A stretch of 64,000 nt of DNA from a virus: the UHGV virus genome UHGV-1374997. One strand, given 5' to 3'. Positions 29,887 through 56,760 of the stretch are shown one piece after another. Within the stretch, counting starts at the first letter, position 1; each line of letters begins with the position of its first letter. Under the pieces are notes generated by a model. The model saw only the letters and a program-made list of their open reading frames with translations, made no database searches and had not been told where the DNA came from. Position numbers and translations under genes: made by a program.

Positions 29887-29951
29887 AAAGTTCTTGACAT
29901 GGAAAGCATAATTTAATAGGTTGTAAAAAAACATCAACAAGGAGAGAAAAT

Positions 29952-33393: not shown

Positions 33394-33480
33394 TCTAAAA
33401 AATCTATTGACATTTGCTTCCGGTTAAAGAATACTCCATTCATCGGAAGCAAACATTTTAGAAAGAAGGAGTGTAAGAGA

Positions 33481-34662
33481 ATGTTTGAGGTAAAAGGATC
33501 AGTAAGTACAGCTAAGGTTTTCACAGATTATGTGGAGCCGACCGCGTTATCTCAGATTATTGAATTATGTAATCAGGAGTTCACCGAAGGAAGTAAAATC
33601 CGTATCATGCCTGATGTACATGCTGGCGCTGGATGTGTTATCGGAACGACGATGACCATTGAAAACAAGAAAATCGTTCCTAATCTTGTCGGAGTTGATA
33701 TCGGATGCGGGTTGACATCAGCGCGATATGGTGGTTATGAATTGGGTTTCCTGCAAGAATATGAAAAAGAAGAAGGCGTATGGGTAAATGATTTTTTAAA
33801 AGAATTTGATAGGTTGATTCGGGCAAATATTCCTATGGGCACGAATGTTTGCGAAAAGTTAATGTACCATCCATTTAGGACACGAATAAAAGAATTGATT
33901 TGCGCTAAAAATGTAAATATTGAAAGGGGATATCATAGTATTGGGACTCTTGGTGGTGGAAATCATTTTATTGAAGTTGGATGCGATATCTTCTCTGAAA
34001 ATAAAGGGCCTATAGGAGAATTGCGTAGAGATTTTTATATCACGGTTCATTCCGGATCTCGTGGTATCGGAAAAGAAGTAGCTACTTATTATCAAAAAAT
34101 TGCGGAAGAACAATGTAAGGGTGTACCCAAGCATTTAGCGTATTTATCCGGGCAAGCATTTGAAGACTATATTCACGATATGCAGATTATGCAGGAATAC
34201 GCTTCTATCAACCGTGATTGTATAATCGAAAAAGTAACTATGGATTGCGCTTTAATCGCTCCCTTTCCGGATAGTTACGAAGAAACAATTCATAATTATG
34301 TAGAGATTGGAGAAAAGATTATTCTTCGCAAAGGTGCAATTTCCGCGAAAAAAGATGAAAAAGTTATGATCCCATTAAACATGCGGGATGGTATCATAAT
34401 CGGAAAAGGTAAGGGCCTTGAGGATTGGAATGAATCCGCGCCTCATGGTGCCGGGCGCGTACTTAGTCGAGGACAAGCTAAACGGCAATTGTCTGTAGAT
34501 ATTTTCAAGGATCAAATGGAAGGAATCTATTCAACCTGCATAAACGACTCGACGTTGGATGAAAGCCCTTCCGCATATAAGAGTTCCGATGAGATTTGTA
34601 ATCATCTCGATTCCGTAGAAATTGTCGGAAGGACTAAACCTATCTATAACATTAAAGCATAA
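33481..34662 (+). CDS. rtcB: RtcB-family RNA 3'-phosphate/5'-OH ligase
   Basis: MPDVHAGAGCVIGTT, VDIGCGL, GGGNHFIEVG, PHGAGRVLSRGQA. Confidence 0.8.
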   Translation: MFEVKGSVSTAKVFTDYVEPTALSQIIELCNQEFTEGSKIRIMPDVHAGAGCVIGTTMTIENKKIVPNLVGVDIGCGLTSARYGGYELGFLQEYEKEEGVWVNDFLKEFDRLIRANIPMGTNVCEKLMYHPFRTRIKELICAKNVNIERGYHSIGTLGGGNHFIEVGCDIFSENKGPIGELRRDFYITVHSGSRGIGKEVATYYQKIAEEQCKGVPKHLAYLSGQAFEDYIHDMQIMQEYASINRDCIIEKVTMDCALIAPFPDSYEETIHNYVEIGEKIILRKGAISAKKDEKVMIPLNMRDGIIIGKGKGLEDWNESAPHGAGRVLSRGQAKRQLSVDIFKDQMEGIYSTCINDSTLDESPSAYKSSDEICNHLDSVEIVGRTKPIYNIKA

Positions 34663-54053: not shown

Positions 54054-54440
54054 ATGAGTATTACTTGGCCCGCAGATCTTCCTCAAGTACCCTTCGCAGA
54101 CGGAGGGTACTCCGAATCAATGCCGTCCAACCTTCTTGTGTCTACTATGGATACAGGTCCGAGTAAAGTTAGACGGAGGGGAAGCGCGACTCCCGGAAAA
54201 ATGAATGTATCTTTTAAAATGACTACGGCAGCTACTAAAAAATTAGAAACCTTTATCCGAACAATTCTTGGCGGTGGGGCAAAAGCCTTTGAATTTCCTC
54301 ATCCTAGACTTGACAAAAATGTAAAAGTACGTATAATGCCGAAGTCGGACACGGAATTGTATGAAATAAATTTCATCGCTCCCGGCCTATGGAAAGTAGA
54401 TTTTACCTTTGAGGTTTTTTACGATGCCCCTCTCGCCTAG
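54054..54440 (+). CDS. minor tail protein, lambda gpM-like
   Basis: VPFADGGYSESMPS and FEFPHPRLDKNVKV parallel gpM blocks. Confidence 0.65.
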   Translation: MSITWPADLPQVPFADGGYSESMPSNLLVSTMDTGPSKVRRRGSATPGKMNVSFKMTTAATKKLETFIRTILGGGAKAFEFPHPRLDKNVKVRIMPKSDTELYEINFIAPGLWKVDFTFEVFYDAPLA

Positions 54441-54945
54441 TACGGTGGCGTCGATGATGGCGCAGGAAACGGATAACGCCGACATAGTTCTTTTGACAAT
54501 TACGCATCCAAGCTGGACGGAACCTATTTATCTATCGTCCGACCCTACGGTTTTTCTTAGGAATGATACGGAAACTAATCTTCCTATCTACGGAACGATA
54601 TCCCGTGGCAAAGAATTTCTTTATATTCCCATGAGAGCTATTGCCCCGGACTCCAGACAAGAGACACCTCCTGAATGCAAAATTTCAATCGACAATGTTT
54701 CTCGGTATATAGCACCGTATCTTGTTAAAACAGATCGACGCACTCCTAAAGTAACTTTTGAAATAGTTACCACCGCTTTTCCGGATATTGTTGATACTGT
54801 GTATCCGGAATTTGATTTATCTTCCGTAACAATCAACGCCCAAACTGTAGATGCCAGCATTTCCTTGAATACGGCTTCTCAAGAGCCCGTGCCGTGGCTT
54901 AGATTTGTGCAAGCATACTTTTACAGTCTTTTTTATAATGGATAA
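54409..54945 (+). CDS. minor tail protein, lambda gpL-like (no C-terminal Cys cluster)
   Basis: ADIVLLTITHPSWTEPIYLSS block like the gpL N-domain; ends exactly where the IS element begins. Confidence 0.6.
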   Translation: MRFFTMPLSPSTVASMMAQETDNADIVLLTITHPSWTEPIYLSSDPTVFLRNDTETNLPIYGTISRGKEFLYIPMRAIAPDSRQETPPECKISIDNVSRYIAPYLVKTDRRTPKVTFEIVTTAFPDIVDTVYPEFDLSSVTINAQTVDASISLNTASQEPVPWLRFVQAYFYSLFYNG

Positions 54946-56208
54946 GGCGCACCTTGACCGGAATTTTTACTCTGAAAGTATCTCTTAACATTTCCCTATA
55001 AACTGAGTATAATTTAATCATGAAAAGAATGCAAGCATATAAATTCCAGTTACGTCCTAAAGCCAAGCAAGCAAATCTCATGTTGGGTTTTGCCGGATGC
55101 TGTCGCTTTGTATGGAATAAGGCGCTTGCATTAGAGAAAGAAACCTATCAAGAGGAGGGCAAACGTCTTGGGTATTATAAACTTGCTGGTTTGCTCAAAG
55201 ATTGGAAAAAGGAAGAAGAAACATCTTTTCTTGCTAGAGCACACTCTCAGATATTGCAGCAGGTACTAAAAGATCTTGATCGGGCTTACAAAAATTTTTT
55301 TGAGAAGCGTGCGGATTTTCCACGATTCAAGAAGAAGGGTGCCCACAATACCTTTCGATATCCGCAAGGCTTCAAGTTGGATGAAGGAAATAGTCGCGTT
55401 TATCTTCCCAAAATAGGTTGGGTGCGTTACAGAAAAAGCAGGGCTATAGAAGGGACGCTAAAGCAAGTAGCGGTTTCTCTTTCTGCCGGAGAGTGGTATG
55501 TCTCCATCCTGACTGAGAGGGAAGTAGTTGAACATATCCATCCCTCTCAAAGCTCTATTGGTATTGATATGGGTGTTGCCCATTTTGCAATGCTCTCTGA
55601 TGGAAGCACAATTGAACCGTTGAACAGCTTTCGCAAATATGAAAAGAAGTTGGCAAAACTGCAACGCAAACAAGCGAGATGCAAAAAGTTTTCCGCCAAC
55701 TGGCAAAAGGTCAAATCACGCATTCAACGCTTGCACCTCCACATAGCTAATGCTCGCAAGGACTTTTTGCACAAGGCAAGCACAATGATTAGCAAAAACC
55801 ACGCTGTTGTTGTACTTGAAGACTTGAAAGTGCGGAATATGTCCAGCTCAAAGACCGGAGGAAAACGCAAGTCAGGATTGAATAAATCTATATTGGATCA
55901 AGGGTGGTTTGAGTTCCGGCGGCAACTGTCTTACAAGCTGGCATGGATGGGTGGATCTTTGACCGCAATTCCTCCTCAGTATACCAGCCAGACCTGTAGC
56001 CGTTGCGGATGTGTAGATAAACAAAACAGACAAACGCAAGCCAAGTTTAAATGTATAGCTTGCGGATTTGAGATTAACGCCGATCACAATGCGGCGTTGA
56101 ATATCTTGGCGGCAGGGCTTGCCGTTACAGCCTGTGGAGCGGGAAAGGCTCAAGCGCCCGCGTTGAATCAGGAACCCGCCTATAGTTTGGCCTAATTGGG
56201 CTTTACTG
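54946..56208 (+). mobile_element. IS200/IS605-family TnpB-only insertion element (boundaries approximate)
   Basis: 74-bp left end, tnpB, about 13-bp right end before the triplicated target segment. Confidence 0.55.
55020..56195 (+). CDS. tnpB: TnpB (OrfB) RNA-guided nuclease, IS605 family
   Basis: RuvC-like motifs and C-terminal zinc finger CSRCGCVDKQNRQTQAKFKCIACGFEINADHNAALNI. Confidence 0.85.
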   Translation: MKRMQAYKFQLRPKAKQANLMLGFAGCCRFVWNKALALEKETYQEEGKRLGYYKLAGLLKDWKKEEETSFLARAHSQILQQVLKDLDRAYKNFFEKRADFPRFKKKGAHNTFRYPQGFKLDEGNSRVYLPKIGWVRYRKSRAIEGTLKQVAVSLSAGEWYVSILTEREVVEHIHPSQSSIGIDMGVAHFAMLSDGSTIEPLNSFRKYEKKLAKLQRKQARCKKFSANWQKVKSRIQRLHLHIANARKDFLHKASTMISKNHAVVVLEDLKVRNMSSSKTGGKRKSGLNKSILDQGWFEFRRQLSYKLAWMGGSLTAIPPQYTSQTCSRCGCVDKQNRQTQAKFKCIACGFEINADHNAALNILAAGLAVTACGAGKAQAPALNQEPAYSLA

Positions 56209-56383
56209 ATAGGAATCCCTTGTTTGTAAGAATAAGGGAGGATGCCAAAACGGATAAAATATGAAAATGAGAGACAAATTTTCAAAATACACAGTAATCC
56301 TCCAACTTTAGGCTGGACAGGATGCCAAAACGGATAAAACATGAAAATGAGAGACAAGTTTTCAAAATACATAGGAATCCCTT
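56209..56383 (+). repeat. rearranged target segment: ATAGGAATCCCTT x2 (56209, 56371) and 51-bp RBS+start-codon block x2 (56240-56290, 56320-56370; 2 mismatches)
   Basis: Direct reading; first copy encodes decoy MKMRDKFSKYTVILQL*. Confidence 0.8.
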
Positions 56384-56760
56384 TTGTGGATCACGGAATA
56401 ACTTCCGAAGGCTGTGATTGCTACGGCCTTGTGCTTCTCGTGTATAAAGAGGAGCTTGGCATTGATCTTCCGTGGCTCGGGGATTCCTATTCTCATGCGT
56501 ATCGTAGAAAAGACGTAAACTCCACGGTAAAAAAGAACATTGATCTTGGTTGCTATATAGACGTTACGAATGAGCCTCGCAAACCTCTTGATATTATTAT
56601 TTTTAGGACTGGAGGTCTTGAAACACATATCGGACTTTGGGTTGAGGATGGATGGCTTTTGGACATACTTGAAGGGGCGCATAGTACGATTCGTAGGTAC
56701 GATACGTCCGAATGGAAAAACAGAATTACGAGAATTTTGAGGCACGTAGATGCGCGGTAA
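56341..56760 (+). CDS. NlpC/P60 (C40) peptidase, lambda gpK-like tail tip protein
   Basis: Catalytic Cys motif EGCDCYGLV and downstream His. Confidence 0.7.
   Translation: MKMRDKFSKYIGIPFVDHGITSEGCDCYGLVLLVYKEELGIDLPWLGDSYSHAYRRKDVNSTVKKNIDLGCYIDVTNEPRKPLDIIIFRTGGLETHIGLWVEDGWLLDILEGAHSTIRRYDTSEWKNRITRILRHVDAR

Follow-up and report, generated by a model that had tools for sequence, protein, structure and literature searches.

How did the gene of an RNA-guided nuclease come to lie within the tail operon of a phage, and could it still act there? The question is raised by virus genome UHGV-1374997, of which one strand of 64,000 nucleotides (nt), hereafter the window, was analysed. Here a tnpB gene of the IS605 insertion sequence (IS) family stands between the gene of a 178-amino-acid (aa) minor tail protein resembling gpL on its 5' side (54409-54945) and that of a 139-aa NlpC/P60 protein resembling gpK on its 3' side (56341-56760). 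We propose that the locus is an IS200/IS605-family (IS608-like) element made of TnpB and its omega-RNA, that its flanks record an insertion followed by crossovers, and that the element may home into, or cleave, sibling phages that lack it; we give this reading a probability of roughly 60%. A first-pass annotation had recognised the IS605-family element in the tail operon, which Pfam matches and the neighbouring tail genes bear out, and had read the repeats around it as a footprint of TnpB-guided homing or retargeting. Homing is a reasonable scenario, but retargeting through the 13-nt sequence that it named as guide, ATAGGAATCCCTT at 56209-56221, is refuted by the boundary of the element's right end.

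The extent of the insertion is defined by relatives that lack it. A search with the gpL-like protein returned nine phage contigs of IMG/VR metagenome 3300045988, from which the window also derives, with gpL 98-99% identical, and a DNA search with the start of gpK added four empty sites from other metagenomes, for a total of 13 IS-free relatives (L072-L080 and L162-L165 in our numbering). The gpL/gpK junction is unbroken in 13/13 (...TTTTTTAT/AAYGGATAAAAYATG...; in full ...CTTTTTTAT AA(C/T) GGA TAA AA(C/T) ATG AAA ATG AGA GAC AA(G/A) TTT TCA AAA TA(C/T) ATA GGA ATC CCT TTT...), and TTAT precedes the target. Positions 54946-56337 are therefore added bases, 1392 nt in the window relative to the empty sites. 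The element occupies this junction in one of the 14 sampled genomes, the window itself. The exact right-end/target junction that would mark a second occupied site was not found in viral or metagenome contigs, and the exact junction between the partial gpK copy described below (gpK') and the right-end tail had no other match among viral contigs. A single contig on record carries exactly the window's TnpB, namely the window's own (Ga0495776_018387, 88,380 bp, metagenome 3300045988); GenBank phages yielded distant matches to tnpB but nothing closely related to the locus. The insertion had also been suspected of truncating gpL. Judged from the same relatives, the gpL-like protein is not truncated, because they encode a protein of identical length (178 aa) ending in YNG before the stop codon; it spans positions 11-163 of the 164 in the phrog_396 profile and is not of the same family as lambda gpL.

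The right side of the element is canonical in its geometry. A genome-wide search recovered 80 further loci of the family, the nearest in Desulfovibrio and Mailhella (74-76% protein identity), and the sequence conserved across 94 loci reads (G/A)TAGGAATC-hairpin-G(A/G)GGATGTCAA, with flanks that differ from the next base on. The family right end, ...GGATG(T/C)CAA in 94 copies, falls at window position 56248. Among sibling phage copies at two other sites, A and B, that at site B is homologous to the window up to 56248 (...AAGGGAGGATGCCAA), and those at site A are homologous up to 56219 and again in ...GGGAGGATG(T/C)CAA, past a hairpin whose loop differs. By this comparison the right end is at 56248, not at 56208, and what follows it is the native sequence that follows TTAT in the empty sites; the right end finishes in CCAA, and with CCAAAACGG in the window the junction is unambiguous. 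The hairpin and the GAAT box are both present, and the terminus is CCAA instead of the family's TCAA, a change shared by L005, one of the site-B copies.

The predicted omega-RNA scaffold is intact. A consensus structure from 32 diverse copies (alifold) comprises 23 pairs, with compensatory changes at 15; covariation is strong in the terminal hairpin, where one pair shows 18 double changes, and 23/23 consensus pairs form in the window copy. Conservation and covariation reach 56248, and the supposed guide at 56209-56221 corresponds to (G/A)TAGGAATC together with the terminal hairpin's 5' arm. A covariance-model search, which the first-pass annotation had recommended, yielded no Rfam family at its gathering threshold in this region and only a sub-threshold match to RAGATH-18 (56131-56174; 33.6 bits, gathering score 44.9; E = 4e-4). 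RAGATH-18 RNAs are guide RNAs of IS607 TnpBs (PMC11061315).

With the right end at 56248, the guide would therefore begin at 56249, and ATAGGAATCCCTT lies inside the scaffold. The predicted guide, its length of 16 nt set by analogy with ISDra2, matches the empty site of L078 at 16/16 positions and those of the other siblings with 1-3 mismatches, among positions 2, 3, 10 and 12, which gives natural target alleles with 0-3 mismatches. The transposon-adjacent motif (TAM) can be predicted from two sides. In 13/13 empty sites the order is TTAT/AACGGATAAAA..., and TTAT adjoins AACGGATAA..., the sequence found after the window's right end; family left ends begin after TTAT or TTAC, and in a single case TTAA, with TTAT accompanied by the box AAAA, TTAC by AAAG and TTAA by AAAT. 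These pairings follow the rule for IS608, which joins the left cleavage site (CL) TTAC with the left guide box (GL) AAAG, and the right cleavage site (CR) TCAA with the right guide box (GR) GAAT (PMC5934647). On the protein side, residues 3-92 of the window TnpB form a gapless alignment with ISDra2 TnpB, in which Y52 and S56 contact TAM base -1 (PMC10097598). Where the left end has been mapped, all 11 loci with Cys56 have TTAC, and about 27 of 28 loci with Ala or Ser56 have a TAM whose last base is T; the window TnpB has Y52/A56 (GYYKLAGL) and the sibling phage copies F52/C56. Both lines, the family left ends and residues Y52/A56 of TnpB, indicate TTAT as the TAM. The window retains no site that combines TTAT with the target. 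The target varies at 4/16 positions (2, 3, 10 and 12) in the 13 empty sites, against about 11% variable positions in an 840-nt flank alignment. Escape mutation would fit this pattern, which is not statistically distinguishable from background; because the sample is too small for significance, we dropped it as evidence.

Several features of the gene support an active element. Its product matches OrfB_IS605, Cas12f1-like_TNB and HTH_OrfB_IS605 in Pfam (E = 1.8e-25, 5.2e-23 and 7.7e-16), with helix-turn-helix (HTH), OrfB_IS605 (RuvC) and zinc-ribbon/TNB domains all present, as well as phrog_506 (E = 1e-127) and the solved structures of ISDra2 TnpB (PDB search, E = 2e-58). The RuvC D-E-D and zinc-finger residues were identified by eye on the top PDB alignment: GIDMG, LEDL and NADHNAA align with the D/E/D-bearing segments of the ISDra2-like chain, which indicates that the RuvC residues are kept, and a CxxC...CxxC zinc finger is present. 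The reading frame is unbroken in 6/6 phage copies, and sibling comparisons give ratios of nonsynonymous to synonymous divergence (dN/dS) of 0.13-0.23, those of the window copy with its siblings being 0.16-0.23; by this measure, about 0.2, tnpB is under purifying selection. A promoter scan predicts TTAACA-17-TATAAT at 54985-55013, with 11/12 consensus positions. A nuclease-dead TnpB-derived repressor (TldR), likewise a phage-borne TnpB-family gene, is ruled out, as the RuvC motifs and zinc finger are kept and the protein has its full length of 391 aa.

Two further observations concern the gene. The -10 box ends 7 nt 5' of the ATG, with no Shine-Dalgarno sequence (55007-55022), and relatives are arranged alike; this spacing suggests that tnpB mRNA in the family is leaderless. 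In addition, a patch at 55185-55365, in the TAM-reading (recognition, REC) part of the gene, is about 17-20% divergent from the sibling copies, against 2-10% elsewhere, and its synonymous divergence (dS) is 0.42-0.47 against 0.10-0.18. The patch holds Y52/A56, where the siblings have F52/C56. Its divergence and dS therefore suggest an imported segment and a mosaic gene.

The left side is non-canonical. Full left ends (LE) of the family read TTAT/CCAACGCGCCGTAAAACC-hairpin-ATATAAGGCGCACC (L007, L082, L083, L086, L087 and L088), in the general layout TTAT/C...GCGCCGTAAAACC-hairpin-ATATAAGGCGCACC. The window copy starts 3' of the hairpin position in these copies; hairpin and guide box are missing, while the TAM and AATGGATAA are kept. 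There is no tnpA match in the window: tblastn with the 138-aa open reading frame (ORF) beside tnpB of L082, taken as TnpA on HUH-like HVH motifs alone, returned nothing there (best E = 0.26). An autonomous IS605 (tnpA plus tnpB) is ruled out in that no Y1 (HUH) TnpA match occurs in the window, and an IStron in that no group I intron match appeared up to E = 10 and only 74 nt lie upstream of tnpB.

Because the left flank keeps TTAT and AATGGATAA, a 9-mer stands on both sides of the element, and because this TAM and 9 nt of target are retained, gpL keeps its native YNG end. The 9-mer, AA(T/C)GGATAA, occurs at 54937-45, 56249-57 and 56329-37, with C at position 3 in both copies after right-end termini. 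Tested for target-site duplication, the flanks show it before the element and after each right-end terminus. Such a 9-mer on both sides is not a product of canonical IS200/IS605 insertion. The first-pass annotation had noticed its GGATAA core on both sides, correctly at 54940-54945 but one base off at its second site, which is 56332-56337 rather than 56333-56338; a third copy lies at 56252-56257, and the full repeat is 9 nt.

The apparent triplication at the right end resolves into a tandem unit of 80-82 nt, composed of right-end tail, target and gpK' (Table 1). A pairwise repeat search found a 62-nt duplication (56239-56300 against 56319-56380, 94% identity) and confirmed the reported recurrence of ATAGGAATCCCTT within gpK at 56371-83; taken as 18-mers, the two copies are 89% identical. 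Tandem Repeats Finder reported no repeat, owing to the small number of units and their divergence in the hairpin part; they become visible in the pairwise search and by manual alignment, each opening with A(T/C)AG(G/T)AATCC. The earlier claim of a duplicated 51-bp block at the start of gpK stands insofar as the duplication is confined to the IS-bearing genome: the 80-nt duplication, whose presence in IS-free relatives would have placed it before the insertion, was found in 0/13 of them. The first 9-10 nt of the block (AGGATGCCAA), however, are the terminus of the IS right end and not a ribosome-binding site of gpK. The decoy ORF of 16 codons that the block creates can be read in the sequence at 56261-56311.

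Both units differ in kind. Unit 1 combines an L005-type hairpin with the L078 flank allele, and unit 2 a canonical-type loop ACTTTAGGC with the majority flank allele; their hairpin energies are -13.9 kcal/mol (z = -3.2) and -7.0 kcal/mol (z = -0.09), respectively. Native gpK ATAGGAATCCC is identical to the conserved right-end motif, and its three perfect matches in the 64-kb window all fall within 56209-56490, a non-random clustering. The repeat would be best explained by one unequal crossover where the right end and gpK codons 11-14 share this 10-11-nt identity, and a single crossover between two element variants accounts for the units' differing alleles and loop types. Separately, gpK carries the exact reverse complement of ATAGGAATCCC, GGGATTCCTAT, at 56480-56490, 98 nt 3' of the direct copy. 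The relatives have GGGATTCCTAT natively, in variant form in L072; that a 420-nt gene should match one 11-mer twice is improbable by chance. A 31-codon ORF at 56242-56337 has its ATG inside the right-end terminus (GGGAGGATG) and terminates with ...QNG-TAA in the frame of gpL, leaving 3 nt to the gpK ATG. It mimics the native stop-AAC-ATG coupling geometry; its Shine-Dalgarno spacing is poor, which makes its use doubtful.

From these features we propose the following origin. A full element would have inserted after TTAT, swapping the last two codons of gpL for 13 foreign ones. A crossover with an IS-free genome, at GGATAA of gpL and GGATATAA of the LE, would then have removed the LE's 5' portion and brought back YNG and the stop codon. 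Finally, an unequal crossover between two IS-bearing genomes with different element variants, at ATAGGAATCC of the right end and gpK codons 11-14 (10-11 nt), may have added the 80-82-nt unit, leaving a decayed second right-end tail and a TAM-less target just 5' of intact gpK. TnpB, expressed either from the promoter in front of its gene or through transcription continuing from the tail operon, would bind omega-RNA with the guide at 56249-56264 and cut TTAT-AACGGATAAAA(T/C)ATGA in IS-free sibling phages sharing the cell. Repair from the IS-bearing genome would copy the element in TnpA-independent, non-restorative homing, or the cut would harm a competitor. The window's own target copies would be immune because CCAA stands in place of TTAT. 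RNA-guided cutting of IS-free siblings at co-infection is the most likely function, and activity of the element is supported by the intact tnpB, its dN/dS, the catalytic and zinc motifs, the intact scaffold and the predicted promoter. For IS605, TnpA-independent homing has been demonstrated in plasmids; in phages it has been described as theoretical (PMC11870625; PMC13565253).

Table 1. Features of the tnpB locus, in window coordinates.
Feature	Position	Strand	Basis or remark
gpL-like minor tail protein, 178 aa	54409-54945		phrog_396 match; weak DUF1833 match
TTAT, putative TAM / left cleavage site CL; native gpL codons	54933-54936	+	empty sites and family left ends
AATGGATAA, last two gpL codons and stop; first 9 nt of native target, 9-mer copy 1	54937-54945	+	
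Left junction, TTAT-AATGGATAAGGCGCAC			
Left end, 5'-truncated, beginning ...ATAA/GGCGCACC; holds predicted tnpB promoter	54946-55019	+	
tnpB, RNA-guided nuclease, 391 aa	55020-56195	+	Pfam, PDB and phrog matches
omega-RNA scaffold and right end	56110-56248	+	alignments, alifold, 94 loci
RAGATH-18-like helix of scaffold	56131-56174		sub-threshold Rfam match
Unit 1, right-end tail, target and gpK'	56209-56290		
GAAT box, IS608 type	56213-56216		
Terminal hairpin	56216-56239		covarying
Right-end terminus GGATGCCAA	56240-56248		TCAA in family, CCAA in window
Predicted guide AACGGATAAAATATGA, 16 nt, across gpL-stop/gpK-start junction	56249-56264	+	begins with first base after right-end terminus
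First target copy and gpK' (13 codons), L078-like allele; opens decoy ORF	56249-56290	+	
Decoy ORF, 16 codons	56261-56311		
Unit 2, right-end tail, target and gpK'	56291-56370		
Second right-end tail, decayed: ACAGTAATCC...ACTTTAGGC...GGATGCCAA	56291-56328	+	aligns with canonical-loop tails
Second target copy AACGGATAAAACATGA, majority allele; CCAA 5', no TAM	56329-56344	+	
gpK-like NlpC/P60 minor tail protein, 139 aa, intact	56341-56760	+	
Unit 3, partial; start of remaining gpK	from 56371		
Native gpK ATAGGAATCCC, codons I-G-I-P of conserved NlpC/P60 motif	56371-56381	+	proposed crossover point; in 13/13 IS-free relatives

Several points weigh against this proposal. Only one of the 14 genomes is occupied, no second occupied site was found, and both IS-bearing parents of the supposed crossover lie outside the sample; the unit-2 crossover point reads ACAGTAATCC, two changes from either parent, and the right cleavage site is CCAA, not TCAA. 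Guide length and TAM are both predictions, and the guide of any IS605 insertion matches its own empty site by construction, which makes the match alone no proof of function. Some of these points favour a neutral relic, an immobilised IS whose truncated left end and 80-nt duplication are neutral scars and whose guide match is a by-product of insertion: the LE hairpin is lost, no tnpA match exists in the window, the right cleavage site is mutated, occupancy is 1/14, and the sibling guides at sites A and B have no clear matching TAM in the native sites. We regard this reading as unlikely, if the strongest of the alternatives, since tnpB is intact in 6/6 phage copies with dN/dS of 0.13-0.23, the catalytic and zinc-finger motifs and every consensus omega-RNA pair are kept, and the promoter retains 11/12 consensus positions.

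The remaining alternatives concern the repeat. The contig comes from a strain mixture, and a chimeric assembly of the repeat, with two metagenome strain variants joined in series, is conceivable: both units' alleles occur in sibling strains of the same sample, and the units share identical stretches of 17-21 nt. We nonetheless consider it improbable. The 56290/56291 junction shares at most 10 nt with either putative parent and has unique substitutions; it is therefore no k-mer graph mis-join and must exist in reads, and some real molecule must hold gpK', then the right-end tail, then the target. There is a very slight chance that the units form a nascent two-unit repeat-guide array, with guide 1 (56249-64) perfect to the L078 allele and guide 2 (56329-44) perfect to the majority sibling allele. 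If true, one TnpB would cover two alleles of one phage target, an intermediate between omega-RNA and a CRISPR-like array; this reading is largely rejected, given the weak hairpin of unit 2 and mutations at those of its bases that would pair with the upstream scaffold. Least credible of all is the first-pass model, in which ATAGGAATCCCTT at 56209-56221 retargets gpK at 56371 and the repeats are the footprint. The 13-mer does recur within gpK, but 56209-56221 is conserved in about 94 elements of unrelated hosts as part of a covarying hairpin, flanks differ only past 56248, and every IS-free relative has the gpK copy as part of its native coding sequence; what precedes that copy is ATAC, which is not a TAM, rather than TTAT.

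Related copies elsewhere in these phages show comparable junctions. Six related phage contigs carry tnpB genes 92-94% identical to the window's at two other sites, and the window holds the empty version of both (site A, about 29900/29915; site B, 33393/33511). At site A (window 29890-29915; L001-L004 2963-4227) tnpB lies between HU-like and RdgC-like genes, and its left junction falls within TTCTTGACAT, 10 nt over which a phage promoter and the tnpB promoter are identical. At site B (window 33394-33510; L005/L006 2926-4229) it lies between a family-A DNA polymerase gene and RtcB and takes the place of 117 nt, among them the start codon of RtcB (33481); the left end is truncated like the window's (ATAA/AGCG), with the same left flank of TTTTAT plus 9 nt. 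By alignment, the left junctions at both sites are of the same style as the window's. In the empty site A, TTTAA stands 5' of the sequence that follows the right end and could serve these Cys56-type copies as a TAM. The site-B guide is without a clear TAM in the native site, and the gene is nonetheless under purifying selection. L007 (2900-4270; IMGVR_UViG_3300045988_140378), from the same metagenome, is a full-ended TTAT-type copy with 79% protein identity, a canonical TTAT/LE junction and no duplication; its right flank has GGATAAAACATG, a 12-mer shared with the gpL/gpK junction. Apart from the element, Rfam places five tRNA genes at window 9477-10741, and this cluster together with RtcB suggests a phage tRNA-repair or supply module.

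Among known systems, the element is closest to IS608 of Helicobacter pylori and to ISDra2 of Deinococcus radiodurans. As in IS608, recognition of the left cleavage site or TAM (TTAC there; TTAT, TTAC or TTAA here) falls to a 4-nt box on the 5' side of the LE hairpin, the family right end consists of GAAT box, hairpin and TCAA terminus, and insertion is 3' of the TAM (PMC5934647). Unlike IS608, which makes no duplication, the window copy has a 9-nt repeat and a CCAA terminus, and lacks LE hairpin, box and TnpA match. Its protein is homologous to ISDra2 TnpB, gapless over the TAM-reading helix, and in both the omega-RNA overlaps the 3' end of tnpB with a guide that begins, here by prediction, at the right-end boundary; the predicted TAM differs (TTAT against TTGAT), as does the scaffold sequence. 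The proposed cutting of an empty orthologous site, followed by copying through recombination, resembles non-restorative homing of plasmid IS605 (PMC11870625; PMC13565253), except that the latter work was on plasmids and the phage case is here read from sequence. Similarly, the free-standing homing endonucleases SegF, SegB and Mob of phage T4 are encoded by selfish genes between conserved phage genes and are expected to cut siblings that lack them (PMC13565253); those nucleases read DNA by protein contacts rather than by an RNA guide, and the proteins are not homologous.

Overall, homing by TnpB has been shown for chromosomes and plasmids, and in the literature searched the phage case is a theoretical possibility only. 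The locus provides a natural test case, with an IS-bearing phage, at least 13 IS-free siblings, a predicted TAM and 16-nt guide, and an element past the use of TnpA. It shows that IS ends in phage genomes are reshaped by homologies of 4-11 nt, and the tracking of the last TAM base by TnpB residue 56 across the family may aid TAM prediction from sequence. Finally, a possible role of the element is that of a phage-to-phage gene drive.

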